NCBI GenBank assembly: GCA_937900325.1
Contig: CALCEX010000070.1
Location: 15,122 to 79,121 of the forward strand
Direction: 5' to 3'
DNA length: 64,000 nt
Origin: an uncultured Clostridia bacterium
GTDB lineage: Bacteria; Bacillota; Clostridia; Christensenellales; CAG-138
The notes under the pieces are model-generated. The model was not told where the DNA came from, made no database searches, and saw nothing but the letters and a program-made list of their open reading frames with translations. Positions 13,495-43,160 of the stretch are shown here, piece by piece. Each line of letters opens with the position of its first letter. Within the stretch, counting starts at the first letter, position 1. Made by a program: the position numbers and the translations under genes.

Positions 13495-15939
13495 TTATTC
13501 TTCTGAATCGGGGTCAACGTGCGGAACTATTGCGACGGACGCCACCCGGTCCTCGGTGCGCATAAGGCGCACGCCCTGGGTATTGCGGGATATTTCGGAT
13601 ATCTGCTCCACCGGCAGCCTTATTATGGTGCCCTCGGAGCTTATTATCATTACGTCCTCCGCCATGCCGGAGGCCCCTACCGCCTTCATGCAGACGAGAT
13701 CGCCGGTCTTTTCGGTTATGGCCATTGCTATTATGCCCTTGCCGCCCCTGCTCTGGGTGCGGTAATCCTCCTCCGGCGTGCGCTTGCCCATTCCGTTTTC
13801 GGATATGGAGAGTATGGAGGCGCCGGGGCGTACCTTCTCGGCTCCCACCACGCTGTCGTTTTCCTCGAGGGTTATGGCCTTTACGCCCGTCGCGCCCCTG
13901 CCCATGGGACGCACGTCCTCCTCGCTGAAGCGTATGCTCTTGCCCTTTCTGGTGCCGACTATTATCTCATCGCGGCCGTTTGTCATTATGGCGGCGATGA
14001 GCTCGTCCCCCTCCCTGAGGTTCTGGGCGATCATGCCGCCCTTGCGGATATTGCCGAACTCCTCAACGGGGGTCTTTTTGATCAGGCCGGCCTTGGTTAT
14101 GAGGTTCAGGTACCTGCCATCCTCCCCCAGGGGGAACAGCGTGGTCACCTTTTCTCCCTCCCTGAGGCTGAGCAGGTTCACTATGGCGGTGCCCTTTGCG
14201 GTGCGGCCCGCCTCGGGTATGCGGTAGCACTTCATCCTGAACACGCGGCCCATGTTGGTAAAGAACATTATCTCGTCATGGGTGCTGCAGCCGAACAGGT
14301 GCTCTACGAAATCCTCCTCGCGGGTGGTCTGGCCGGTTATGCCCCTGCCGCCCCGGTTCTGCGCCCTGTAGGTATCCATGCTGGTGCGCTTTACAAAGCC
14401 GAAGTGGGTGAGGGTCACCGTCATCTCCTCGGGCTGTATTATGTCGTCCAGCTCTATATCCTCGGTTATCTGGGCTATCTCGGTCCTTCTGGGGTCTGCG
14501 TATTTGCGGCGGACCTCCATTATCTCATCCCGGATTATGCCCAGCAGCTTGCTTTCATCCGCAAGCACGCTCTCATAATAGGCGATGGTCTCTATGAGGC
14601 CGTCCCTCTCCGCCTGTATCTTATCGTGCTCAAGCCCTGTGAGGCGGCCGAGGCGCATATCCAGTATCGCCTGGCTCTGCCTGTCCGTCAGGCCGAAGCG
14701 TATGTTCAGCCTTTCCTTTGCCTCCCCCTGGGTCTTTGAGGTCTTGATTATATCCACGACCTCGTCTATATTCGCCATGGCTATGAGCAGGCCCTCTAAT
14801 ATGTGCAGCCGCTCCCTGGCCTTTTCCAGGTCGTGCCTTGTGCGCCGGGTCACTACCTCCTCCTGGAATCTGAGGTAGTGGTACAGCATCTCCTTTATGT
14901 TGAGCACCTTTGGCTCGCCATCCACAAGGGCCAGCATTATCACGCCGAAGGTATCCTGAAGCTGGGTGTGCTTATAGAGCTGATTCAGGACGATATTGGC
15001 GTTCACGTCCTTTTTTATCTCTATTACCACCTTCATGCCGTTGCGGTTGCTCTCATCCCGCAACGCGGTTATGCCCTCCACCCGCTTTTCGCGCGCCAGC
15101 TCCGCTATCTTTTCCACCAAGCGCGCCTTGTTCACCTGATAAGGAAGCTCGGTGACAACTATGCGGCTCTTGCCGTTCGCCATGGGCTCTATCTCGGTCT
15201 TTGCGCGGACGAGTATCTTGCCGCGCCCCGTCCTGTATGCCTGCCTTATGCCGGCGGTGCCCATTATGGTCGCGCCGGTGGGGAAATCCGGCCCGGGCAG
15301 GTACGTCATGAGCTCCTCTACGGATATGTCCCGGTTGTCTATGAGGGCCGCGTATGCGTCTATTACCTCCCCGAGGTTATGGGGGGGTATGTTTGTGGCC
15401 ATGCCTACGGCTATGCCGTTGCTGCCGTTTACCAGCAGATTCGGGAAGCGGCTGGGCAGCACGGTGGGCTGCGTCAGCGTCTCGTCGAAGTTGGGCATGA
15501 AGTCCACGGTGCTCTTGTCTATATCCGCCAGCATCTCGAGGCTCATTTTTGAAAGCCGCGCCTCGGTATAGCGCATCGCCGCCGCGCCGTCCCCGTCCAC
15601 GCTGCCGAAGTTGCCCTGGCCCTCTACGAGAAGGTATCTGGTGTTGAAGTCCTGGGCCAGGCGCACCATCGCGTCGTATACCGAGCTGTCGCCGTGAGGA
15701 TGGTATTTGCCCAGTACGTCGCCCACTATGCGGGCGGACTTATGGAAGGGCTTATCCGGGGTGAAGCCCTGCTCCCCCATGGAGTAGAGTATGCGCCGGT
15801 GCACCGGCTTGAGGCCGTCCCGCACATCCGGCAGGGCGCGGTTTATTATTACCGCCATGGCGTAGGAAATAAAGGATTTCTTCATCTCCTGCTCTATATC
15901 CAGCGGCGTTATGCGGGGGTTGTTGGTCATGTCGTCCAT
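13495..15939 (-). CDS. gyrA: DNA gyrase subunit A
   Basis: 814 aa. [16 protein letters not shown], the active-site region AAMRYTE, and C-terminal beta-pinwheel repeats. Confidence 0.97.
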
Positions 15940-15950
15940 TTACTGCTCCT

Positions 15951-17891
15951 TTATACGTCCAGATCCACTACCAGCTTGCTGTTCTGCTCTATGAACTCCC
16001 TGCGGGGATCCACCTTATCCCCCATGAGCGTAGAGAATATCTCGTCCGCCCGTATGGCGTCCTCAAGGTGTACCCGGTACATCATGCGGTTGTCCGGGTC
16101 CATGGTGGTCTCCCATAGCTGGTCCGGGTTCATCTCGCCCAGGCCCTTGTAGCGGTTGATGAGGGGCTTGGGGTCCCGCCCTATCTCGGAAAGTATCTTT
16201 GAAAGCTGCTCGTCGTCATAGGCGTACCATATGTTCTTGCCCCGGGTGATCCTATACAGCGGGGGCTGGGCGGCGTATATGCGGCCGTGCTCTATAAGGG
16301 GGCGCATATGCCTGTAAAAGAAGGTGAGCAGCAGTATCCTTATGTGCGCGCCGTCCACGTCCGCATCCGTCATGCAGACTATCTTGTGATAGCGGAGCCT
16401 GCTCTCGTCAAACTCGGTGTCTATGCCGGTGCCGAAGGCGGTTATCATGGAGCGTATCTCGTTGTTGGCGAGCATCTTGTCAAGGCGGGTCTTTTCAACG
16501 TTGAGTATCTTTCCGCGAAGGGGCAGTATGGCCTGGAACTCCGGGTTGCGCCCCATCTTGGCGGAGCCGCCCGCGGAATCCCCCTCTACCAGGAATATCT
16601 CGCATTTTTCCGGCTCGTTGCTGTTGCAGTCCGCAAGCTTGCCGGGGAGCGCTATATTCTCGAGGCCGGTCTTTTTGCGGGTAAGGTCCCTCGCCCTCCT
16701 CGCGGCCTCCCTGGCCCTCGATGCGGTTATGCATTTGTCTATTATCAGCCTTGCGGTCTGCGGGTGCTCCTCAAAATAGAAGCCCAGGCCGTTGCCCACC
16801 ACGCCGTCCACAAGGGACTTGATATAGGAATTGCCCAGCTTGGTCTTGGTCTGCCCTTCAAACTGGGGCTCCACAAGCTTTACGCTTATTATCGCGGTAA
16901 GTCCCTCCCGGACGTCGTCGCCGGAGAGGTTCGCGTCGTTATCCTTGAGCAGCCTGTATTTCCTCGCGTAGTCGTTTATGCTGCGGGCAAGGGCGCTGCG
17001 GAAGCCCTGAAGGTGGGTGCCGCCCTCGGCGGTATTTATGTTGTTGGCGAAGGCGAATACGCTTTCGTTATAGTCGGTGTTGTACTGCATGGCCACCTCC
17101 ACGGAGGCCACCTGCTGCTTCGCGGGGTCGTCCCTTCTGCCCTCGAAATACATGACGTCCTCATGGAGCACGTCCTTGCTTTTGTTAAGGTGCTCCACAA
17201 AGGAGATTATGCCGCCCTCATAGCAGTATTTTTTGCTCTGCACCGGGTCCGTGCGCTCATCCGTGACGGTTATGGCCACGCCCTTGTTCAGGAAGGCCAG
17301 CTCCCTCATGCGCCCCCGCAGGGTATCGTAGTTGTAATCCAGCGTGTCGAATATCTTATCGCTCGCAAGGAAGGTTATGGTGGTGCCGGAGCCTTCCCCT
17401 TCGTATGTGCCTACCTGCTCTACCCCCGTCACCGGGTCGCCGTTTACATATTGCTGCCGGTATACTATGCCGTCCCGGCGCACCTCCGCGGTAAGCGAGC
17501 TGGAAAGGGCGTTTACCACGGACAAGCCAACGCCGTGCAGGCCGCCGGATACCTTATAGCCGCTGCCGCCGAACTTGCCCCCCGCGTGCAGCACGGTAAG
17601 CGCTACCTCCAGCGCGGATTTATGCATCTTCTCATGGTAGCCCACGGGTATGCCGCGGCCGTTATCCCGGACGGATACGGAATTGTCCGGGTGTATGGTG
17701 ACCTCTATATGGGTGCAGTAGCCGCCCATGGCCTCGTCTATGGCGTTATCCACCAGCTCCTTTACAAGGTGGTGCAGTCCCCGCACATCCGTGGAGCCTA
17801 TATACATACCGGGGCGGCGCTTTACCGCCTCCAGCCCCTCGAGCACCTGTATCTCGTTTGCGTTGTAGTTTGCGTGGTTGTTCTGTTCCAT
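15951..17891 (-). CDS. gyrB: DNA gyrase subunit B
   Basis: 646 aa. GHKL ATPase ([15 protein letters not shown]), Toprim ([12 protein letters not shown]) and [10 protein letters not shown]. Confidence 0.97.
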
Positions 17892-17911
17892 GGTAAATGC
17901 CCTTCTGTAAA

Positions 17912-18151
17912 TTATCTCCTGGCTATCGCCGCCGCCCCCGCAGCCGATGCGTACACCCTTATTCCATCGGGCGCCGCGGCGATAACGTATGTGTCCCCCT
18001 CGCCGCCGGATACGCAGTCCACCCGGCCGGAGCCTATGGCCGCCTCCATAAAGCGGCGGTTGTCGTATGAATACATCACCGTTTCCCGGGGCAGTATAAG
18101 GAGTATTTCCTCATCGTCCACTACCTTATCCCCGCCTATATGCAGATACAT
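17912..18151 (-). CDS. remB: DUF370 protein (RemB/YaaB-like)
   Basis: 79 aa. [11 protein letters not shown]... matches the DUF370 N-terminus. It holds the conserved position between recF and gyrB. RBS GGAGGAATA. Confidence 0.75.
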
Positions 18152-18163
18152 TATTCCTCCCCG

Positions 18164-19261
18164 TCATTCCACGGTCATCCCGCCGCCCCCGCAGCGGAAC
18201 ACCCTCATATCGCCCAGGCCCGCCCGCTTCAGCCCCTCGAGGCTCGTGCAGGTCAGAAAGCACTGGCAGTCCTTCATGCTCTCCAGCAAAAGCTGCTGGC
18301 GGCCCTCGTCCAGCTCAGACAGAACGTCGTCAAGTATCAGCACCGGGGCTTCATCCTTGAGCTCCCGTATGAAGGCAAGCTCGGAAAGCTTTAATGAGAG
18401 CGCCGCGGTGCGCTTCTGCCCCTGGGAGCCGAAGGTGCGCACGTCTATGCCGGAGAGGGCTATGCCTATATCGTCCCGGTGGGGGCCCCTCGTGGTAAAG
18501 CCCCGGCGCATATCCTCCGCCCTGCTTTTTTCGAGGGCGCTGAGCATCCCGCCGTAAATGCCCTCCGGCGATTCCGGGTCTATGTCCGGCTCATAGGCTA
18601 CCTCGAGCTTTTCCCGGCCTCCCGTTATGCTCCTGTGCAGGTCGTAGGCTATCGTGGAAAGGCCGTCCATGAAGCCGCAGCGCTCCATTATGATATCCTC
18701 GCCCAGCGCCGCAAGCTGCTCGTCCCATGCCTCCAGCATTCCGGGGGCTATCCTGTCCGGCTCCTTTAAGAGGGCGTTGCGCTGCTTAAGCGCCGAATTG
18801 TACCTTTGCAGGCTGTAATAATAGGCCGGGTGGGTCTGGGAAAGCTCCATATCCATGAAGCGCCGCCGCTCCGCCGGGCCGTCCTTTACTATTGAAAGAT
18901 CCTCCGGGGCGAACATCACCACATTCAGCAGCCCCATGAGCTCCCCGGAGCGGGAGGCCATCTGCCGGTCTATGAATATTTTCTTGCGCTCCCCGTCCCG
19001 GAGCTTTATCTCGATAAGGTGGGAGCCGGTGTTGTTGGTAAGCTCCGCCCCGACGTACCCGCCGGCGCAGCCCCGCATGATGAGCTCCGCGTCCCTCGAG
19101 GTCCTGTGGGACCGGCCGAAGGCGCAGAGAAAAACCGCCTCCACGCTGTTGGTCTTGCCCTCCGCGTTGTCCCCCACTATGGCGTTTATGCCGGGGCCGG
19201 GGCGCAGGTCGAGGGCGGCATAGCTGCGGTACTGATTCAAGCGCAAGCGGTTGATCTCCAT
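18164..19261 (-). CDS. recF: DNA replication/repair protein RecF
   Basis: ORF 18164..19285 begins with TTG, so I used ATG 19261 (MEINRLRLNQYRSY). Walker A GDNAEGKTN, signature FGSQGQKRT, Walker B LILDDVLSELD. Confidence 0.93.
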   Translation of the reverse strand: MEINRLRLNQYRSYAALDLRPGPGINAIVGDNAEGKTNSVEAVFLCAFGRSHRTSRDAELIMRGCAGGYVGAELTNNTGSHLIEIKLRDGERKKIFIDRQMASRSGELMGLLNVVMFAPEDLSIVKDGPAERRRFMDMELSQTHPAYYYSLQRYNSALKQRNALLKEPDRIAPGMLEAWDEQLAALGEDIIMERCGFMDGLSTIAYDLHRSITGGREKLEVAYEPDIDPESPEGIYGGMLSALEKSRAEDMRRGFTTRGPHRDDIGIALSGIDVRTFGSQGQKRTAALSLKLSELAFIRELKDEAPVLILDDVLSELDEGRQQLLLESMKDCQCFLTCTSLEGLKRAGLGDMRVFRCGGGGMTVE

Positions 19262-19486
19262 CTTCTCTGCCCGCCTGTAATACAAAAATTTTACCTGCTG
19301 ATTTTACCATAAAATCAGGGATTTTTCAATGGCTATTATTATAATAAGAAGAAAGCATTGCAAAAATGCATAAATATGCGTAAGATGCATATCGCGGCGC
19401 CCCACAAAAATATTTGCGCCGCCGTTGAAATATAGTATAATAAATAAAAATATAAACGGTATCATCCATTCCAGGGAGGGACGAAT

Positions 19487-20593
19487 ATGCGCTTTACAGT
19501 TGATACGGCTGAGCTCAACGCCGCCGTTGCCACGGTTTCAAAGGCGCTGGGAGTAAAATCCTCAGTTGGCATATTGGAGGGCATATATGCCGAGGCCATA
19601 GGCGATACGCTGCTGCTCAGGTGTACCGACCTTTCGCTCCAGATAGAGGCTACGCTCAACGTGAATATCCAGAAGGAGGGGGCCTGCGTGCTGCCCGGGC
19701 GGCTCTTTTCCGAGCTTGTAAGGAGGCTGCCCGCGGAGGAGACGCTGCTCAGCCTCAATAAGAGCACGCTGCTTATCGAAAGCGGCAGGGCCACCACCAC
19801 CATGCAGGTGGAAAACGCCAAGGATTACATCTCCATGCCGGAGGTCAGCCGGGAGTTCTCCGTGGCCATATCCAAGGCGACCCTGAAGAGCATGATACGC
19901 CAGTGCATATTCGCGACGGCCCAGGACGATTCCAAGCCCATTCTCCGTGGCGTGCTCATAGAGCTCGACGGCGGCCGCATGAGCATGGTAGCCCTTGACG
20001 GATACCGTCTCGCCATGCGCACCGAGACGGTCACGGTATCGGGCGAGGCGAAGAGCGCGGTCATCCCCGCCCGCGGCCTTCTGGAGATAAGCCGCATACT
20101 GGACGACAGCGACGAGACCATCAGCCTGGTATTCTCCGCCACCCATGTAATGATAGACATGGGCTATACCCGCATAATCACCCGCCTTATGGACGGCGAT
20201 TTCATACGCTACCGCCAGATACTGCCGGAGGGCTGCACCACCCATGTGCGGGTGAACCGCACAGAGCTTCTGGACAGCATTGAGCGCGTCTCCCTCATGG
20301 CCCGGGAAAGCAGGAAGAACCACATAAAGTTCTCCTTTGAGGATTCTCAGCTCACCATCACCGCCAACAGCGAGATAGGCGCCAGCAAGGAAATAGTCAA
20401 TATCGACCGCATGGGCAGCGATATAGACATTGCCTTCAACGCAAAGTATTTCAGCGACGTGCTGAAGGTGCTGGAGGACGAATACGTCTGCCTGGATATG
20501 AACACCAACATAAGCCCCTGCGTGGTAAAGCCCGAGACCGGCGACGCATACTATTACCTCATCCTCCCCGTAAGGCTGTTTTCGGGGAATTGA
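19487..20593 (+). CDS. dnaN: DNA polymerase III beta subunit (sliding clamp)
   Basis: 368 aa. MRFTVDTAELNAAV... with three-domain clamp length. RBS GGGAGGG. Confidence 0.95.
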   Translation: MRFTVDTAELNAAVATVSKALGVKSSVGILEGIYAEAIGDTLLLRCTDLSLQIEATLNVNIQKEGACVLPGRLFSELVRRLPAEETLLSLNKSTLLIESGRATTTMQVENAKDYISMPEVSREFSVAISKATLKSMIRQCIFATAQDDSKPILRGVLIELDGGRMSMVALDGYRLAMRTETVTVSGEAKSAVIPARGLLEISRILDDSDETISLVFSATHVMIDMGYTRIITRLMDGDFIRYRQILPEGCTTHVRVNRTELLDSIERVSLMARESRKNHIKFSFEDSQLTITANSEIGASKEIVNIDRMGSDIDIAFNAKYFSDVLKVLEDEYVCLDMNTNISPCVVKPETGDAYYYLILPVRLFSGN

Positions 20594-28974: not shown

Positions 28975-29101
28975 TATAGGCGCGGAGGTTATGCGGCATC
29001 CTGCGCAGCCCGCTGCGGGCTGTATATATTTCTTTACTGAACTGTATATATTTAAATTTTTAAAGGCCGGCATACGGCTTTTGCTGTATTTTGGGGGAAT
29101 T

Positions 29102-30430
29102 ATGGACGACTTTTTAGATTGCAGGCTTATTTGGGAAAAAGCGCAGCCCGAAATAAAGGAAGGCATGACCGAGATGAGCTACGGCCTGTGGATATCCGCT
29201 CTGGAGCCCGTCTGCATACTCAGCGATATGCTGATACTGCAATCCGCCAACGAGGTGACCCTGGATACCCTCAGGAGCCTTTATTCAGACCAGATAGCCA
29301 ACGCTATCTCGCACGCCTCCGGCGCGAGCCTCCGGCCGATGTTCATCTGCGGCGACGAGCGCCCCAAATATGAAAAGCTCATGGCGGAGAAAAAGCGCCG
29401 CAGCGAGTCCCTCCTGGATCCCCGCTTCACCTTCGATACCTTCGTAATAGGCGGCAGCAACAACATAGCCTACGCCGCGGCGAAGGCTGTTGCGGCGCAG
29501 CCGGCAAAGGCCTTCAACCCTCTCTACATTTACGGCGACGTGGGCCTGGGCAAGACCCACCTCATGCACGCCATAGGCAATAAGATAAAGGAGGACAACC
29601 CCTCCGCCCGCATAACCTACGTTACCAGCGAGACCTTCACAAACGAGCTGATACAGTCCATTCAGGACAACACCAACGCCCAGTTCCGCAGCAGGTACCG
29701 CAATGTGGACGTGCTTATGATAGACGACGTACAGTTCATCGCCGGAAAGAACACCACCCAGGAGGAATTCTTCAACACCTTCAACACCCTCCACACCAGC
29801 GGCAGACAGATAGTCATATCCTCGGATAAGCCCCCCAAGGAGATACCCGCCCTTGAGGAGCGGCTGCGCAGCCGCTTTGAAGGCGGGCTGATAACCGACA
29901 TACAGTCGCCGGATTACGAGACCCGCATGGCCATACTGCAAAAAAAGGCGGATCAGGAGAACATAGTCATCGATCCGCGGGTGCTTTCCCTCATAGCCAC
30001 AAAGGCCAACGCCAACATACGCCAGCTTGAGGGCGCCTTCACCCGCGTGGTGGCCTTTTCAAAGCTCCTTGGCACCCCCATTACCCTTTCCATGGCGGAT
30101 TCCGCCCTCAAGGATATAATCGAGGACGTGCAGGAGCGGCGGGTGACGGTTCCCATGGTGCAGCAGGTGGTGGCGGATTTCTACAACGTATCCGTGGACG
30201 CCATGACCTCCTCCCGCCGCACGGCGGACGTTACCTACCCCCGTCAGGTGGCCATGTACCTTTCCCGGGAGATGACCGACCTCTCCCTCAAGGCCATAGG
30301 CGAGCAGTTCGGCGGCAGGAACTATTCCACCATAATCTCCGCCTGCAACAAGATAGAGGACGATATGCTCTTCGACCCCGAGCTTTCAAAGGTGTTCAAG
30401 GACCTCAAAAAGCGGATAAAGGGGAACTGA
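29102..30430 (+). CDS. dnaA: Chromosomal replication initiator protein DnaA
   Basis: ORF 28946..30430. ATG 29102 is preceded by GGGGGA. AAA+ Walker A GDVGLGKTHL, box VII, and a domain IV HTH (GGRNYSTIISACNKI). Confidence 0.96.
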   Translation: MDDFLDCRLIWEKAQPEIKEGMTEMSYGLWISALEPVCILSDMLILQSANEVTLDTLRSLYSDQIANAISHASGASLRPMFICGDERPKYEKLMAEKKRRSESLLDPRFTFDTFVIGGSNNIAYAAAKAVAAQPAKAFNPLYIYGDVGLGKTHLMHAIGNKIKEDNPSARITYVTSETFTNELIQSIQDNTNAQFRSRYRNVDVLMIDDVQFIAGKNTTQEEFFNTFNTLHTSGRQIVISSDKPPKEIPALEERLRSRFEGGLITDIQSPDYETRMAILQKKADQENIVIDPRVLSLIATKANANIRQLEGAFTRVVAFSKLLGTPITLSMADSALKDIIEDVQERRVTVPMVQQVVADFYNVSVDAMTSSRRTADVTYPRQVAMYLSREMTDLSLKAIGEQFGGRNYSTIISACNKIEDDMLFDPELSKVFKDLKKRIKGN

Positions 30431-30451
30431 TGGGTTTTACCTGTCTTTCTT

Positions 30452-30530
30452 CTTCTTTCTCTTTTCTTTTCGGGAAAAGAAAAGCCAACGGGAAATATAT
30501 AAATAAAAAATTAGAAAACGATAAAAAAAG
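30452..30530 (+). repeat. Polypyrimidine/polypurine hairpin element, copy 3 (3' of dnaA), short form
   Basis: Identical 20-mer at 30452-30471, then GGG-AAAAGAAAAGCC. It lacks about 28-30 nt present in copies 1 and 2. It shares AACGGGAAA...AACGATAAAAAAG with copy 2. Confidence 0.9.
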
Positions 30531-30560
30531 AGCGGTTTTTATGCCGCTCTTTTTGTTTTG
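30524..30560. terminator. Bidirectional intrinsic terminator between dnaA and livF
   Basis: AAAAAA-GAGCGG-tttttatg-CCGCTC-TTTTTGTTTT. Confidence 0.8.
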
Positions 30561-30564
30561 CGCC

Positions 30565-31287
30565 TTATTTCTTTCCGAGATAGGCTTCCTTGATGCTGTC
30601 GTCGTTGAGCAGCTCCATGCCGGTGCCGGTCATGGTAACGCTGCCGGTCTGGAGGACGTAGCCCCTGTCGGCTATCTTGAGCGCCGCGTTGGCGTTCTGC
30701 TCTATCAAAAGCACCGTCACGCCGTCGTCGTTTATGCGGCGGATTATGGAGAATATGTCCTTTACCACCAGAGGCGCCAGGCCGAGGCTGGGTTCGTCCA
30801 TCATTATTACCCGCGGCTTCGCCATAAGCGCGCGGCCCACCGCCAGCATCTGCTGCTCGCCGCCGGAGAGGGTTCCGGCCTGCTGCCAGTGGCGCTCGTT
30901 CAGCCTCGGGAACAGGCTGTAAACGTGCTCTATATCGTGCTCTATGGCGTCCTTGTCCTCTCTGAGATATGCGCCTATGCGCAGGTTTTCAAGGACGGTC
31001 AGGTTCGGGAACACGCGGCGGCCCTCAGGCACCAGCACTATGCCGCGCTGAACTATATCGTGGGTAGCGGCATGGGTGATGTCCTTTCCCTCGTAGCTTA
31101 CGGTTCCGGAGGCGGGGCTTACGACGCTCATTATAGCGCGCAGCGTGGTGGATTTGCCCGCGCCGTTTGCGCCTATGAGGGTCACTATCTCCCCCTCGTT
31201 CACGTCGAAGGATACTCCCTTCAGGGCCTCTATGCCGCCGTAGTTTACTTTAAGGTCGCGTATTTCAAGCAGGCTACTCATCTTCAT
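30565..31287 (-). CDS. livF: Branched-chain amino acid ABC transporter ATP-binding protein
   Basis: 240 aa. GANGAGKSTT, LSGGEQQML, MMDEPSLGLAP. Last gene of the liv-type operon. Confidence 0.9.
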   Translation of the reverse strand: MKMSSLLEIRDLKVNYGGIEALKGVSFDVNEGEIVTLIGANGAGKSTTLRAIMSVVSPASGTVSYEGKDITHAATHDIVQRGIVLVPEGRRVFPNLTVLENLRIGAYLREDKDAIEHDIEHVYSLFPRLNERHWQQAGTLSGGEQQMLAVGRALMAKPRVIMMDEPSLGLAPLVVKDIFSIIRRINDDGVTVLLIEQNANAALKIADRGYVLQTGSVTMTGTGMELLNDDSIKEAYLGKK

Positions 31288-32116
31288 CTACCCCCAGGTA
31301 TGCGTTTATAACGTCGGGATTGTCCTGTACCTCGGCGGCGGTGCCTGAGGCTATCAGCCGGCCGAAATCCAGAACGTATATGCGCTCGGCTATGGCCATT
31401 ACGAGATCCATGTGATGCTCTATCATCAGTATGGGTATGTTGTATTCATGCCTTATCTGGCTGATGAAGTCGGTAAGCTCCTTTGTCTCCTGCGGGTTCA
31501 TGCCCGCGGCGGGCTCATCCAAAAGCAGCAGCTTGGGGTCGGTGGCCAGGGCGCGGGCTATCTCCAGCCTGCGCTGGAGGCCGTAGGGCAGGCTTCCGGC
31601 TATGTCGTCCTTCAGGTGCTCGAGGTGCTGCTCCTGCAAAAGCGCCATAGCCTCGTCCCTCATGCGCTTTTCTTCCTTTGCGTTGAGGCGCAGCGTCGCC
31701 GTGAATACGTTCTGCTTTGCCCTCATGTGCTTTGCGATAAGCACGTTGTCGAATACCGTAAGGCTCCTGAAGAGGCGGATATTCTGGAAGGTACGGGCTA
31801 TGCCCAGCCTGGTTATCTGGTCCGGCGTGGGGCTGACGATATGGCTGAACTCCGGATAGAGATTGCCGGTGTACAGCTTTTTCATCTTGCCCTGGGGATG
31901 GTTGCATACCATGGTTTTGCCCATGAAGCTGACCATGCCGTTGGTGGGCTCATATACGCCGGTTATGCAGTTGAAGGCCGTGGTCTTTCCCGCGCCGTTC
32001 GGGCCTATGAGGGCGACTATCTCCTTGTCGTTTACCTCCATGGAGAGATCGTTCACGGCCACGACGCCGCCGAACTGCATGGTAACATGGTCAAGGCGAA
32101 GTACGTTTTCTGACAT
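31274..32116 (-). CDS. livG: Branched-chain amino acid ABC transporter ATP-binding protein
   Basis: ORF 31274..32179. ATG 32116 lies next to the livM stop. GPNGAGKTT, LPYGLQRRLEIARAL, LLLDEPAAGMNP. Confidence 0.9.
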   Translation of the reverse strand: MSENVLRLDHVTMQFGGVVAVNDLSMEVNDKEIVALIGPNGAGKTTAFNCITGVYEPTNGMVSFMGKTMVCNHPQGKMKKLYTGNLYPEFSHIVSPTPDQITRLGIARTFQNIRLFRSLTVFDNVLIAKHMRAKQNVFTATLRLNAKEEKRMRDEAMALLQEQHLEHLKDDIAGSLPYGLQRRLEIARALATDPKLLLLDEPAAGMNPQETKELTDFISQIRHEYNIPILMIEHHMDLVMAIAERIYVLDFGRLIASGTAAEVQDNPDVINAYLGVDEDE

Positions 32117-35953: not shown

Positions 35954-37357
35954 TTACTTCGCGTTGTTCTCGCCGAGGCGCACGCCGTTGAAGTATTCGC
36001 GGCAGAGCTTGACGACGATGGGAGACAGAGCCAGCAGACCAACAAGGTTGGGCAGAGCCATAAGGCCGTTGAGGGTGTCCGCTATATCCCAAACGAGGGA
36101 GAGCTCGGTAACGGCGCCCAGAACGATGATCAGGCAGAAGATGACCTGATAGGGCTTTATGACCTTGGTGGTGTTGAACAGGAACTCGGCGCAGCGGGTT
36201 CCGTACAGGCACCAGGAAAGTATGGTAGAGGTAGCGAAGAGGGTAAGACCGACGGAGATTATGATGCCGCCGACCCTGCCGAAGGTGGTGGAGAACGCCG
36301 CGATGGTGAGGGGCGCGCCGGCAGCCTGGCCGTACTCGATGGGAGTGCCGGACATAAGCACGGCGAAAGCGGTAAGGGTGCAGATAACGATGGTATCAGC
36401 GAACACCTCGAACACGCCGAAGCAGCCCTGACGAACGGCGGAATCGGTATCCGCGGCAGCATGAGCTATAGGAGCGGAGCCGAGACCGGCCTCGTTGGAG
36501 AATACGCCGCGTCCTACGCCGCGCTTGATAGCGGCGGAGATGGTCACGCCGGCAACGCCGCCGACAACAGCGGAGGGATTAAAGGCGCCAACGAAGATGC
36601 TGCGCAGAACGCTTCCGATATTGCCGATATGGGCAAAGAAGATTATAAGGGCGGAAACGATGTAGATAACTGCCATGAAGGGAACCAGCTTTTCGGTGAC
36701 CTGGCCTATACGCTTAAGGCCGCCGAGGAGCACCAGCGCGCAGAACGCCGCAACGATTATGCCAATGATAAGGTTGGCGGTGTTGACGTTGATGGGAGTG
36801 TAGCTGTTGATGGTGCCGGAGATGGAGGTAACGATGGAGTTGATCTGGGTCATGTTACCTATGCCGAAGGCAGCCAGCATTCCGAAGAGTGAGAACAATC
36901 CGCCGAGCCATTTCCAGTTCTTGCCGAGGCCCTTGCTTATGTAGTACATGGGGCCGCCTACCCAGTCGCCCTTGTCGTTGCGCTCGCGGAAATGGATGGC
37001 CAGGGTAACTTCAGCAAACTTGGTGCACATTCCGAACAGGGCGGAGATCCACATCCAGAATACTGCGCCGGGGCCGCCGAGGGCTATCGCGCCGGTAACG
37101 CCGGCGATGTTGCCGGTGCCAACGGTAGCTGCCAGAGCGGTACAAACGGCCTGGAAGGGAGTTACGGCGCCCTCGCCCGCTTCCTTCTTTTCGAAGATCT
37201 TGCCGATGGTGTTCTTCATTATGTAGCCGAACCACCTGAACTGTACCCAACCGCAGCGGATAGTGTAATACACGCCTGTGCCTACCAGAAGGATCAGGCA
37301 GGGCCAGCCCCATACGATGCCGTTAAGGAAGGAGTTTACTTTTACGATAAGTTCCAT
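35954..37357 (-). CDS. Alanine/glycine:cation symporter (AGCS family)
   Basis: 467 aa, about 11 TM. AGCS signature region (TPFQAVCTALAATVGTGNIAGV). Confidence 0.88.
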   Translation of the reverse strand: MELIVKVNSFLNGIVWGWPCLILLVGTGVYYTIRCGWVQFRWFGYIMKNTIGKIFEKKEAGEGAVTPFQAVCTALAATVGTGNIAGVTGAIALGGPGAVFWMWISALFGMCTKFAEVTLAIHFRERNDKGDWVGGPMYYISKGLGKNWKWLGGLFSLFGMLAAFGIGNMTQINSIVTSISGTINSYTPINVNTANLIIGIIVAAFCALVLLGGLKRIGQVTEKLVPFMAVIYIVSALIIFFAHIGNIGSVLRSIFVGAFNPSAVVGGVAGVTISAAIKRGVGRGVFSNEAGLGSAPIAHAAADTDSAVRQGCFGVFEVFADTIVICTLTAFAVLMSGTPIEYGQAAGAPLTIAAFSTTFGRVGGIIISVGLTLFATSTILSWCLYGTRCAEFLFNTTKVIKPYQVIFCLIIVLGAVTELSLVWDIADTLNGLMALPNLVGLLALSPIVVKLCREYFNGVRLGENNAK

Positions 37358-37481
37358 CAGAATTAGTCCTTTCTTATTTTATTTGAAAATATGTGGTAGA
37401 TACGTTTTTCCTGCAAGATAATTGGCTTTTAAATTCAAAAGCCATTTAGGCGATGTAAATAAAGCTTCTATTCACGCTAAG

Positions 37482-37510
37482 ATTTTAGCATGACATATCC
37501 AAATAGTCAA
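37482..37510 (-). promoter_or_regulatory. Sigma-A promoter of the symporter gene
   Basis: On the - strand: TTGACT, a 17-nt spacer, then TAAAAT with an extended -10 TG (TGCTAAAAT). Confidence 0.6.
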
Positions 37511-37570
37511 TATATTTCTTCACATTTTGTACATATATTATTGCGAAAAAATCCTTATTTTGTCGGTTTT

Positions 37571-38001
37571 TTATCAACAATAGGGTCCGTGCGCAATATA
37601 TTAGGCTCCGTTAATCGTTTAACATCAATATTTAGTTTTTTTAACTATTTATCAACCTGTGACGGGTAATGGAGACGCCGCTTCATATCCATGGGAAAAA
37701 GCGCAGACCGTGCATATCCGGCGCGGCCCCTGACCACAAAAGCGTTGACAAGCCGCGTTGATACGGCGTTGATAAAATGTTGACCGGCACAGGCCGCGCT
37801 TTTCCGCTCCCTTTCGGGCGCGGGCGGGGCGAAAAATAATTTATAAAGCGTTGATAACATGTGTTGACATCGTGTTGATAAGGGGTTGAAAAAGGCGCGC
37901 CGTTGAAAGCGTTGATAAGGCGGGTCTTTTCCAACGCTCCGCCAACTGCTTATCAATATTGGTTTTGCAGGCGTTATCCGGGTTTTTTGGGGTTTTCAAC
38001 G
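37571..38001. promoter_or_regulatory. Cluster of 14 DnaA-box-like 9-mers (consensus TTATCAACG/A), including two phased head-to-tail arrays
   Basis: The boxes are listed in the findings. The arrays at 37743-37786 and 37849-37892 have identical 13-11-11 bp start-to-start spacing. No credible ORF lies in 37358-38084. Confidence 0.55.
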
Positions 38002-38053
38002 GTGCTGACACGCCTATTACGAATACTACTGTATACATATATAATGATAAGAA

Positions 38054-38078
38054 TAAAAAAAGCGGCCTAAGGCCGCCC
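38054..38078 (-). terminator. Intrinsic terminator after the GNAT gene
   Basis: On the - strand: GCGGCC-uua-GGCCGC followed by UUUUUUU. Confidence 0.75.
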
Positions 38079-38084
38079 CTGACG

Positions 38085-38573
38085 CTATGACCGCAGATAA
38101 TCATAGGCTATACGCTCGGTGCCGTTACGCATATATACGATCCCGCATTCTTTGAAGCCGAATCTTTCTATCGCGGAGCGCATTGAAAGATTGTCCCTGT
38201 GGGTATCTATGCGGATATAATCCATCTTACCGAGGCAGTATTCAAAGCAGACCCTCGAAATACCCGGTGCTATGCCTGCCGACGCCAGGCGATGGATGGT
38301 GCCGTAGGGCCTGTCGTAATGCCAATGGCCGTTTTTTATGACCTGATAGTTTGGCTCCTCTCCTATAATAAAAGTAAAGATACCCGCTATCGCGCCGTTA
38401 TCGGTGATAAGATAGCTGTCGCCGTTCCTGATATCGGATACTATCGTCTCCTCCCCCGGATAACCCTTTATCCATTGCGTCGCATTTCCGTGGCTGGCCA
38501 TATACTGCCTTGCGGAGGCTATTATCCTCATTATGTCATCGACATCATTCATGGTGCTTTTTCTGATATTCAT
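38085..38573 (-). CDS. GNAT family N-acetyltransferase
   Basis: 162 aa, with GNAT-like size and motif pattern (RIDTHRDNLSMRSAIERFGF). Confidence 0.75.
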   Translation of the reverse strand: MNIRKSTMNDVDDIMRIIASARQYMASHGNATQWIKGYPGEETIVSDIRNGDSYLITDNGAIAGIFTFIIGEEPNYQVIKNGHWHYDRPYGTIHRLASAGIAPGISRVCFEYCLGKMDYIRIDTHRDNLSMRSAIERFGFKECGIVYMRNGTERIAYDYLRS

Positions 38574-40990: not shown

Positions 40991-41347
40991 TTAATCGGCA
41001 AAGTATTTCCTGAAAGTCCTTTCTATCTCAGTATCCACCTCTTTGCTGAAGGCGGTAAAATCCGAAAGTATCTGCTCGGCGTCCCGGGTAAGGCCCGCGC
41101 CGCCGCCCTTTGCGCCCCCGGTGCGGGTCAGCAGCAGCTTACAGCCCGCGAGCTCCTCGCTGCGCTTTATGATACGCCATGCCTTGGAATAGGCCATGCC
41201 TATCTCCTTTGCCGCCGAGGAAAGGGAGCCGGTGCGCTTTATGCCCTCCATAAGCATGGCTATGCCGGGGCCGAAGTATTTGCCGCCGTCCTTGCTGAGC
41301 CAAAGGGTATATACCGGCTTTATGCACTGGTAATTCACACAGCTCAC
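40991..41347 (-). CDS. Winged-helix DNA-binding protein (ModE N-terminal-like / LysR-HTH-like)
   Basis: 118 aa. GSLSSAAKEIGMAYSKAWRIIK...TGGAKGGGAGLT resembles the ModE N-domain. GTG start overlaps the parB stop (GTGA). Confidence 0.65.
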   Translation of the reverse strand: MSCVNYQCIKPVYTLWLSKDGGKYFGPGIAMLMEGIKRTGSLSSAAKEIGMAYSKAWRIIKRSEELAGCKLLLTRTGGAKGGGAGLTRDAEQILSDFTAFSKEVDTEIERTFRKYFAD

Positions 41348-42192
41348 TCCCTTATGAGAATATCGTATATGCCGTTCAGTTCGTCGCTCGAATAGTATTC
41401 GATAATGACCTTTCCCCTGCTCTGGCTGCCCTGTATGCTCACCCTTGTGCCGAGCCTGTCGCGGAGCCTGTCCTGAGCGAACCTGAGGTCGGTATCCACC
41501 GGCTGCTCCGGCTTTTTCTTCTCATGGGCGGGCTTTGTCATGGCCTTCGCGAGCCGCTCCGCCTCCCTTACGGATATGCCCCCCTCCGCTATCCTGTCGG
41601 CAAGCCGGAATTGCATGGGCTTTTCCGGCAGGCTGAGTATCACCTTTGCGTGGCCGGACTGGAGCCTGCCCTCCCTGAGGTACTGCTGTATCTCCTCGGG
41701 CAGGTTGAGAAGGCGCAGCGTGTTGGCTATGGACGGGCGGCTCTTCGCGAGGCGCTCCGCCACCTCCTCCTGGGTAAGGTCGTTCTGATCCATAAGGAAG
41801 CGTATGGCCGCGGCCTGCTCTATGGGGTTCAGGTCCTCACGCTGTATGTTTTCAATGAGGGCGACCTCCATCACCTCATAGTCGTTCATGTCCTTTATTA
41901 CTACCGGCACCTTGTTAAGGCCCGCTATGCGTGCGGCGCGGTAGCGGCGCTCTCCGGCTACTATGGTATACCTGTCTCCCGTCCTCCGCACGACGATGGG
42001 CTGTACTATGCCGTGGTTCTTTATTGAATTGGCCAGCTCATACAGCTTTTCCTTATCAAAACTCTTGCGCGGCTGGGATGAATTTGTGTCCAGAAGGTTT
42101 ACGTCTATCTCGATAACGCTTTCCTCCGGCGGCTGCTGATAATCCCCAAGCAGCGCGTCAAGCCCTTTTCCGAGTCCCTTTTTCAAAGCCAT
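41344..42192 (-). CDS. parB: Chromosome partitioning protein ParB (Spo0J)
   Basis: 282 aa. ParB box IVAGERRYRAA, an HTH, and a C-terminal dimerisation region. Downstream of parA. Confidence 0.93.
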   Translation of the reverse strand: MALKKGLGKGLDALLGDYQQPPEESVIEIDVNLLDTNSSQPRKSFDKEKLYELANSIKNHGIVQPIVVRRTGDRYTIVAGERRYRAARIAGLNKVPVVIKDMNDYEVMEVALIENIQREDLNPIEQAAAIRFLMDQNDLTQEEVAERLAKSRPSIANTLRLLNLPEEIQQYLREGRLQSGHAKVILSLPEKPMQFRLADRIAEGGISVREAERLAKAMTKPAHEKKKPEQPVDTDLRFAQDRLRDRLGTRVSIQGSQSRGKVIIEYYSSDELNGIYDILIRE

Positions 42193-42195
42193 GGA

Positions 42196-42960
42196 TCAAT
42201 TCTCCTTATCTATAAGCTCGTTGGCAAGCGCCCTGTACGCCTTGGCCCCTGAGCAGCGTGGATCGTAAAGCGTTATGGGAAGGCCGAAGCTCGGCGCCTC
42301 GCTGAGCCTTACGGAGCGAGGTATTATGGTATCGTAAACCTTGTTTTTAAAGAACTTCTTTACCTCGTTCACTACCTGACCCGAAAGGTTGGTCCGCGCA
42401 TCGAACATGGTGAGCACTACGCCCTCTACCTGAAGGTTCGTATTTAGCCGCTGCTTGACCAGCTTTACCGTGTTCATAAGGTCCGAAAGGCCCTCCAGGG
42501 CGAAATACTCGCACTGTATTGGGGCCAGCAGCGTGTCCGACGCGGTCAGGGCGTTTATCGTCAGCAGGCCAAGGCTGGGGGGGCAGTCTATAAATATGTA
42601 GTCATAGCTGTCCCGGACGGTATCCAGCACGCGCTTGAGAACGGTCTCGCGGGCTATGGCGCTGACCAGCTCCACCTCAGCGCCGGAAAGCTCCTTGCGG
42701 GCGGTGAGCACATCCAGCCCCTCCACTACGCTGCGCTCTATGGCCTCCCTCGGATCGACGCCGTTTATCAGCACGTCGTATATGCTGTACTGCACCGCGT
42801 CCTTATCTATGCCCAGGCCGCTGGTGCTGTTGCCCTGGGGGTCTATATCCACGCACAGCACCCGCTTGCCCTTCTGGGCCGCGCAGGCCGAAAGGTTGAC
42901 GGTGGTGGTGGTCTTGCCAACCCCGCCCTTCTGGTTAGCTACGGCGATTATTTTAGCCAT
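42196..42960 (-). CDS. parA: Chromosome partitioning ATPase ParA (Soj)
   Basis: 254 aa. Deviant Walker A NQKGGVGKTTT. Confidence 0.93.
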   Translation of the reverse strand: MAKIIAVANQKGGVGKTTTTVNLSACAAQKGKRVLCVDIDPQGNSTSGLGIDKDAVQYSIYDVLINGVDPREAIERSVVEGLDVLTARKELSGAEVELVSAIARETVLKRVLDTVRDSYDYIFIDCPPSLGLLTINALTASDTLLAPIQCEYFALEGLSDLMNTVKLVKQRLNTNLQVEGVVLTMFDARTNLSGQVVNEVKKFFKNKVYDTIIPRSVRLSEAPSFGLPITLYDPRCSGAKAYRALANELIDKEN

Positions 42961-43109: not shown

Positions 43110-43125
43110 TGTTCCACGTGGAACA
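43110..43125. promoter_or_regulatory. parS site (perfect 16-bp palindrome TGTTCCACGTGGAACA)
   Basis: Read directly. Matches the Firmicutes parS consensus TGTTNCACGTGAAACA at 15 of 16 positions and is perfectly palindromic. Confidence 0.85.
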
Positions 43126-43144: not shown

Positions 43145-43160
43145 TGTTCTACGTGGAACA
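43145..43160. promoter_or_regulatory. parS site (TGTTCTACGTGGAACA)
   Basis: Differs by one nucleotide from the first site and lies 35 bp downstream of it. Confidence 0.75.

Follow-up and report, generated by a model that had tools for sequence, protein, structure and literature searches.

Here we describe a 727-bp non-coding gap, at positions 37358-38084 of a 64-kb stretch of DNA from an uncultured Clostridia bacterium (contig CALCEX010000070.1; the whole stretch is called the window), which, judging from its sequence, is very probably the chromosomal origin of replication, oriC, with an unwinding region of the Firmicutes incC type, in Clostridia related to the Christensenellales. The gap holds fourteen copies of a 9-mer with the consensus TTATCAAC(A/G), and these are most likely the DnaA boxes of the clade, in which the box and the recognition helix of DnaA would have changed together. 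On a larger scale, we consider it probable that the recognition between DnaA and its origin was re-coded throughout a clade of gut Clostridia (Christensenellales relatives, Candidatus Pelethousia among them), with the substitutions His-to-Tyr and Thr-to-Ser (and Asp-to-Asn in the subclade of the window) moving the core of the box from TCCAC to TCAAC at every origin and dnaA-promoter site. An earlier note on this DNA, made from the letters alone, had proposed a DnaA region at this place, and the proposal is supported by a comparison of dnaA loci, in which those with a tyrosine in the helix (Tyr-type) use TCAAC boxes where those with the usual histidine (His-type) use CCAC. The anatomy of the sequence, its conservation, the covariation of box and helix and the positional orthology of the gap were all computed directly.

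Results

The gap is bordered on the left by a Na+/alanine symporter gene (35954-37357) and on the right by a small gene that weakly matches GNAT (38085-38573), both on the minus strand, and all fourteen 9-mers of the earlier note were found in it, each at the position and on the strand given there. The start-to-start steps of the minus-oriented boxes are 13, 11, 11 / 71 / 13, 11, 11 / 17, 9, and the two arrays of four boxes, rightly recognised before as a duplication, form a 45-nt direct repeat with 73% identity at an offset of 106 bp (Table 1). The spacer between the arrays, which puts them about 10 helical turns apart, keeps its length within 1 bp in the relatives L001 and L081 and might serve, for example, as a bend or a site for an accessory protein. 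Open reading frames (ORFs) in the gap were rejected as genes, the longest of them not being in frame among relatives, in agreement with the earlier view that the gap has no credible ORF, and an Rfam search of the gap and of its counterparts in L001 and L081 gave no match.

The density of the 9-mer, which the earlier note had wanted to see measured genome-wide, sets the gap apart from the rest of the window. Of the six exact copies of the motif TTATCAACR in 64 kb, five are inside the gap; 0.45 would be expected in the window, and none of 100 shuffles reached six. The core GTTGA is found ten times on the same strand in 37740-37925, a span of 186 bp for which lambda is 0.19 (Poisson P of about 1e-14), and the maximum elsewhere is four. 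A position weight matrix (PWM), trained solely on boxes from other genomes, finds 13 matches in 300 bp at the gap, at most five elsewhere in the window, and at most eight (mean 3.5) in block shuffles. There is no cluster of the canonical box TTATCCACA anywhere in the 64 kb, the surroundings of dnaA and dnaN included.

Table 1. Candidate origin elements and adjoining features, with positions in the window; PWM scores in brackets
Feature	Position	Strand	Sequence and remarks
DnaA-box array 1	37743..37786	-	Four head-to-tail 9-mers, 13-11-11: 37743 TTGTCAACG (10.8), 37756 GTATCAACG (8.2), 37767 TTATCAACG (14.4), 37778 CGGTCAACA (<7)
GC-rich inter-array spacer with short inverted repeat	37787..37848	.	
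DnaA-box array 2	37849..37892	-	Four head-to-tail 9-mers, 13-11-11: 37849 TTATCAACG (14.4), 37862 ATGTCAACA (7.9), 37873 TTATCAACA (17.1), 37884 TTTTCAACC (12.6)
Abutting box pair	37901..37918	-	CTTTCAACG (9.6) and TTATCAACG (14.4)
Single box	37950..37958	+	TTATCAATA (13.2)
DnaA box proximal to the putative basal unwinding system	37993..38001	+	TTTTCAACG; points towards the trios; top match of this type
12-bp spacer	38002..38013	+	Degenerate second box GTGCTGACA, then GC cluster CGC
Six DnaA-trios	38014..38031	-	Top strand CTA TTA CGA ATA CTA CTG
Candidate DNA unwinding element	38032..38061	.	About 90% A+T, directly after the trios
Two boxes in AT-rich DNA	37571..37657	+	37571 TTATCAACA (17.1), 37649 TTATCAACC (14.0)
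Promoter-like site of the symporter gene	37482..37510	-	TTGACT-17-TAAAAT; outside the origin proper

A basal unwinding system consists of a box in the TTATCCACA orientation, an optional degenerate second box and a short GC cluster, followed by at least three DnaA-trios with a central A on the bottom strand and then by AT-rich DNA (PMC8287927, PMC6669920, PMC7561715), and the length of the spacer between box and trios peaks at 10-13 bp (PMC8287927). We looked for a box at most 16 bp from at least three DnaA-trios (NAN on the bottom strand) with a GC cluster preceding them (PMC8287927, PMC7561715), and the module that begins at 37993, near the right end of the gap, has the box, the GC cluster and the trios. 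When both strands of the window (128 kb) were scanned for a box, trios and AT-rich DNA in combination, this module came first with a score of 11.5, against 9.0 for the next. Its spacer of 12 bp compares with 12 in L011, 13 in L012 and 12 in Enterococcus L054, three control origins which likewise carry on the top strand a box, about 12 nt and then triplets of the CTA type; an equivalent top-strand layout of box and trios is described for C. difficile (PMC7561715). Read 3'-5' on the bottom strand, the trios of the gap are GAT AAT GCT TAT GAT GAC, with a central A in five of the six and a central C in the third, a substitution reported to be tolerated (PMC10721633).

Directly after the trios comes the least stable 30-mer of the gap (38032-38061, -27.4 kcal/mol by nearest-neighbour energy), whose right end overlaps the T-tract of the terminator of the GNAT-like gene (38080..38058, minus strand). 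The AT-rich flank that the earlier note described at 37511-37660 holds a promoter match for the symporter gene and is not the best candidate for unwinding, the likely site being 38014-38061. In alignments with L001 (DnaA 98% identical to that of the window) and with L081/L082 (82%), no part of the gap is better conserved than the 37993 module, and CCTATTACG.ATA within the trios is invariant in L001 and L081.

Related genomes, which the earlier note suggested checking, also preserve the box cluster. In both L001 and L081 the GTTGA cores, the spacing inside each array and the offset of 106 bp are unchanged while other bases diverge, the block CGCCGTTGAAAGCGTTGATAAGGCG at the abutting box pair is nearly invariant among the window, L001 and L081, and the box at 37950 keeps TATCAA in both relatives. 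Two members of the original set of fourteen fare less well: at the site of 37571 the closest relative, L001, has TTTAACAAA, and at that of 37649 there are large indels, so that a role for these two plus-oriented boxes is doubtful. A pattern scan of JGI metagenomes with the conserved module returned no match and thus no further orthologues for footprinting.

The 9-mer departs from the canonical box at position 6 (TTATCAAC vs TTATCCAC), and the earlier note regarded this mismatch as the weak point of a DnaA assignment. It is resolved by the protein: the DnaA helix of this lineage has changed, and the boxes track the helix. The window's dnaA gene starts with ATG at 29102 and ends at 30430 on the plus strand, and its product aligns without gaps to domain IV of E. 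coli DnaA (1J1V) and to B. subtilis DnaA (8BTG). The helix reads FGGRNYSTIISAC in place of the usual FGGRDHTTV(I/L)HA, that is, GGRNYSTIIS against the canonical GGRDHTTV[IL]H, with N-Y-S-T for D-H-T-T at E. coli positions 433-436. The substitutions are thus Asp433 to Asn, His434 to Tyr and Thr435 to Ser, at three residues that are reported to make base-specific contacts and to be conserved among Firmicutes and E. coli (PMC7561715), and position 6 of the box is itself contacted base-specifically (PMC6727663). Pro423 is replaced by Lys and His439 by Ser as well, but both of these changes are also present in His-type relatives with canonical boxes. Any assignment of His434 to a particular base of the box is something we infer.

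For the covariation of box and helix, 80 dnaA loci were sampled from GTDB genomes and ten were obtained by exact-protein look-ups, and 91 loci were compared in all. Every one of the 17 Tyr-type loci, whose DnaA proteins are 60-100% identical to that of the window, has T[TAG]TCAAC boxes adjoining dnaA; near dnaA these loci hold 69 TCAAC and 9 CCAC boxes, as against 85 TCAAC and 394 CCAC boxes at the 74 His-type loci (Fisher P = 1e-34, Mann-Whitney P = 4e-10). A tree that ignores the helix columns places the Tyr-type proteins in a single clade of Christensenellales relatives, with His-type Christensenellales-like DnaAs as its sister group, and this monophyly points to a single evolutionary switch that carried all of the sites along.

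Among the Tyr-type relatives that retain the classical gene order (rpmH | dnaA-dnaN-recF-gyrB-gyrA) are L085, which is a genome of Candidatus Pelethousia, and L087, L088 and L090; these have a conserved plus/minus/plus triplet of TTATCAACA in the dnaA promoter and, just upstream of dnaN, a box pair followed by DnaA-trios and then by AT-rich DNA. The module reads TTTTCAACC TTTTCAACA TCT CTA TAA CTA CTA in L085 and TTTTCAACA CATTCAACA TCA CTA CTG GTA CTA CTT in L090; in L088 a CCAC box, TTCTCCACG (L088:3621-3629), comes first and is paired with a CAAC box, and the module boxes of L087, TTTTCCATA and TATCCAACA, are not clearly of the TCAAC type. Overall, TCAAC boxes take the positions that DnaA boxes hold in canonical Firmicutes origins, and the dnaA-dnaN spacers of the clade, with minus boxes first and then plus boxes, trios and AT-rich DNA, have their layout in common with the gap.

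Individual canonical boxes were also seen in Tyr-type genomes. In L001 array 2 opens with the canonical TGTGGATAA instead (L001:18973-18981), and in L085 two canonical boxes stand right after the dnaA stop codon (L085:9362-9380). A separate pattern concerns the last base of the box: G at position 9 is found in 19 of 38 boxes where residue 433 is Asn (window, L001, L002, L081) and in 4 of 50 where Asp433 is kept (L003, L005, L009, L083, L085, L087-L090), which may be a second covariation of helix and box within the Tyr-type clade.

The gap begins 6.9 kb after dnaA, given the end of that gene at 30430 (the earlier figure was 7.5 kb), and lies 18 kb from dnaN, adjacent to neither. In L081, rpmH (minus) is followed by dnaA (plus), then by a spacer of 620 bp that contains both arrays and the module, and then by rlmH (minus) and MBL (minus). 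In the window and L001, livFGMHK and the symporter gene (6.9 kb) separate dnaA from the arrays, and the GNAT-like gene separates the module from rlmH; the six transporter genes are absent from between dnaA and the arrays in L081, and in distant Tyr-type relatives dnaN follows directly after the module. Since it is the neighbours that differ around a conserved module, the origin appears to have stayed put while they changed. The earlier suggestion of an oriC uncoupled from dnaA thus holds as regards the separation, although it is six intervening transporter genes, rather than a movement of the origin, that account for it. The result is a Firmicutes-type origin that would have lost its neighbours stepwise, from dnaA-BUS-dnaN (BUS being the basal unwinding system) to dnaA-oriC-rlmH and then to dnaA-six transporter genes-oriC-GNAT-rlmH, with box arrays and unwinding module intact through all stages of the displacement.

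Among further relatives with Tyr-type DnaA at 70-71% identity (L003, L004, L083, L084), no origin-like cluster or module was found within 10 kb of dnaA, and the origin of these genomes must therefore lie further off. A three-box cluster is present at their dnaA promoter, and dnaN is absent within 10 kb of dnaA.

Discussion

Taken as an origin, the gap suggests the following course of events, in which we infer that DnaA binds the 9-mers, fills them in a certain order, unwinds the DNA and fires in vivo. The boxes would be read by a DnaA whose helix went from D-H-T-T to (D/N)-Y-S-T. ATP-DnaA might first occupy the near-consensus boxes at 37767, 37849, 37873 and 37910 (PWM 14-17 bits), after which the weaker neighbours could be filled cooperatively, the 11-bp phasing aligning the protomers along a single helical face; the outcome would be two arrays of four protomers each, at a distance of 106 bp (10 turns), together with the box pair at 37901-37918. 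The plus-oriented box at 37993 would then direct a DnaA oligomer onto the bottom-strand trios at 38014-38031, and this oligomer would open the AT-rich DNA at 38032-38061 for helicase loading. The upstream arrays may assist by looping or by the delivery of oligomers or protomers, and looping or protomer delivery has been proposed for the distal boxes of B. subtilis (PMC6669920).

A close known match is the incC/basal unwinding system of B. subtilis oriC (DnaA-box#6/#7; Richardson 2016/2019, Pelliciari 2021/2023), which the gap resembles in its plus box, degenerate second box, GC cluster, bottom-strand trios with central A and AT-rich DNA, in its 12-bp spacer, and in having extra upstream boxes at a distance. 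The gap differs from it in the core of the box (TCAAC, not TCCAC), in its place between the symporter and GNAT-like genes rather than between dnaA and dnaN, in its upstream boxes, which form two phased four-box arrays, and in that the boxes upstream of dnaA (incA/B-like) are deleted in the window genome, unless this is an artefact of assembly. With the arrays of E. coli oriC (R1/R5M/tau2/I1/I2 and R4/C1/I3/C2/C3) it shares head-to-tail 9-mers 2 bp apart, in 11-bp steps, high-affinity anchors that alternate with weaker sites, a location not adjacent to dnaA, and a TTATCCACA-oriented box that faces the unwinding element (PMC6727663, PMC13643167). Unlike those of E. coli, whose halves are opposed, the arrays of the gap have the same orientation, no IHF or Fis sites were identified in the gap, and its trio module is much clearer, the BUS score of E. 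coli being weak (PMC8287927).

Lineage-specific boxes are also known from Thermotoga maritima (the 12-mer AAACCTACCACC) and from Epsilonproteobacteria (T at position 5), and there as here a changed box goes with substitutions at base-contacting residues of domain IV (PMC6669920, PMC5043019, PMC7561715). The change in the window differs from these in falling at position 6, inside the near-universal CACA core (TTWTNCACA), and in involving His434Tyr and Thr435Ser, plus Asp433Asn in the subclade of the window.

The alternative that survives best, which we nevertheless hold to be unlikely, is that the gap is a cluster of DnaA boxes without being an origin, acting in datA-like titration, in DARS-like reactivation or in DnaA-dependent control of the symporter or GNAT-like genes, with initiation elsewhere. 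It shares with datA and DARS of E. coli the position of a box cluster away from dnaA, and the distances to dnaA and dnaN, together with arrays that point away from the candidate unwinding site, would suit such a role. The loci datA and DARS are not known to have a trio or unwinding module or to be orthologous to an origin region downstream of dnaA. The gap, unlike them, carries the best combination of box, trios and AT-rich DNA in the window, with control-like spacing and as its most conserved part, and it is orthologous to the region immediately downstream of dnaA in L081; its layout is that of the canonical dnaA-dnaN spacers of the clade, and no second box cluster was found near dnaA, near dnaN or elsewhere in the window, the region just upstream of dnaN (19286-19486) having neither a box cluster nor an unwinding module. 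The earlier note had left the choice between oriC and a datA/DARS-like locus open, and the top-ranking module and the orthology to L081 favour oriC over the latter.

Several further observations weigh against an origin at the gap, and two of them would likewise suit a cluster that is not an origin. The skew of the window has no switch at the gap, the minimum of cumulative GC skew lying near 30-31 kb, and the genes that follow on its right for about 8 kb (38.1-45.9 kb) lie on the minus strand, so that a fork moving rightward would meet them head-on. The skew at 4-fold sites (GC3), taken gene by gene, is dominated by codon preference, gene strand and the composition of membrane proteins, and with gene strand and codon usage dominating it, skew is uninformative on the origin at the scale of 64 kb; the head-on genes are unusual for Firmicutes, and the layout of L081 is alike. 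There is a 1-bp insertion in the trio run of L081, after the fourth trio. The covariation of box and helix mirrors one switch and not many independent ones, and the persistence of CCAC boxes in Tyr-type origins suggests that specificity was perhaps relaxed or broadened rather than switched, so that Tyr-type DnaA may still read canonical boxes. Finally, a further box cluster may lie elsewhere on the chromosome, beyond the 64 kb covered. On the side of oriC stands the company of origin-proximal genes in the window: rpmH, rnpA, yidC, jag, gidA/B, dnaN, recF, gyrBA, and parAB with parS.

It is less probable still that the 9-mers serve a protein other than DnaA, as iterons, operators or centromere repeats; this protein could be a plasmid-type Rep, a ParR-like centromere binder, ParB or a transcription factor. 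Such a reading could appeal to the departure of the motif from the canonical box at a conserved core position, to parA and parB genes 3-5 kb away, and to a likeness of the two arrays, with their direct repeats phased at 11 bp, to parC-type centromeres. Neither a rep gene nor parM or parR adjoins the gap, however, its neighbours being the Na+/Ala symporter gene and the weak GNAT match. ParB has canonical, palindromic sites of its own, two near-consensus parS sequences at 43110-43125 (TGTTCCACGTGGAACA) and 43145-43160 (TGTTCTACGTGGAACA), which are unrelated to the 9-mer and some 5 kb distant from the arrays; closely downstream of them are parA (42196-42960) and parB (41344-42192), both on the minus strand. 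In relatives the 9-mer is found at both sites where DnaA boxes classically stand, in the dnaA promoter and in the module before dnaN, and it changes along with a substitution in the recognition helix of DnaA itself; the iterons or operators that the earlier note offered as its alternative are accordingly disfavoured. Two specific elements of this kind were rejected. A plasmid or phage iteron origin was discarded on the lack of an adjacent rep gene and on a repeat unit that is a 9-mer at 11-bp steps and not an iteron of 17-22 bp, and a ParB-parS or ParR-parC centromere on the location of parS beside parAB, its dissimilarity to the 9-mer and the absence of parMR genes.

A functionless duplication of recent, local origin, tandem or segmental, in which the repeat is due to chance or drift, would fit the 45-nt duplicated module but can hardly be credited when arrays, spacing and 106-bp offset are kept at 98% (L001) and 82% (L081) DnaA identity while the flanking non-box bases diverge, with an enrichment far beyond chance.

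Both DnaA boxes peculiar to a lineage and origins that stand apart from dnaA have been described before (PMC8287927, PMC6669920, PMC5043019), and as an origin the gap is ordinary in kind. The variant of the DnaA box is apparently undescribed: in the searchable literature we found no description of a box with a TCAAC core, of a DnaA with His434Tyr/Thr435Ser, or of a Christensenellales origin. Should the proposal be correct, origin finders and predictions of the DnaA regulon that default to TTATCCACA or TTWTNCACA would miss or mis-score the origins of a common gut clade, in keeping with a window where the canonical motif forms no cluster at all. It would also represent a natural change of specificity at a position contacted by DnaA, linked to two or three defined residues, and a directly testable handle on the code by which DnaA recognizes DNA. 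It would provide a natural and possibly orthogonal pair of initiator and origin within the near-invariant CACA core, from which the construction of such pairs could start.

Other features of the window

The window represents the origin-proximal region of a Clostridia chromosome with 58% G+C. From the left, its genes are gyrA, gyrB and recF (minus), dnaN (plus, 19487), a parB-like gene, gidB and gidA (minus) and mnmE (plus); jag, yidC, rnpA and rpmH (minus), dnaA (plus), the livFGMHK ATP-binding cassette (ABC) operon and the symporter gene (minus) follow, and then the gap; to its right are the GNAT-like gene, rlmH, an MBL hydrolase gene, chromate transporter genes, parB and parA, all on the minus strand. 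In the region 13495-20593, to the left of rpmH, an inversion has put gyrA, gyrB and recF on the minus strand, and dnaN alone is on the plus strand, between recF and the parB-like gene.

Upstream of dnaA, at 29080-29101, the window is without the four to five TCAAC boxes that its closest relatives have there (L001:9930-10015, L002:10095-10180); the gap in the alignment is about 72 bp and has G-run flanks. These boxes, presumed to be autoregulatory for dnaA or incA-B-like, would have been lost in the window genome, unless the gap is an artefact of assembly. Immediately after dnaA, a 293-aa ORF (30430-31311, plus strand) was rejected as a gene, having no family match and an antisense-like composition. 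The gene at 30565-31287 on the minus strand encodes a livF-like ABC ATPase (ABC_tran, E = 1.6e-33), and with this gene on the minus strand the liv operon converges on dnaA.

Between dnaA and the arrays, L081 has a promoter-like sequence, TTGACA-17-TACAAT (L081:5370-5500), with a strong GC hairpin and a T-tract about 100 nt past it. The hairpin is absent from the window, and its region had no Rfam match at the gathering threshold; L081:5370-5500 could represent a small transcript.

The block around the promoter match of the symporter gene is strongly conserved with L001. Between this match and the start codon lies a near-perfect palindrome of 15+15 nt (37419-37448), a terminator-like hairpin (37444..37423, minus strand) without an Rfam match, and this leader palindrome could be an attenuator or an operator.

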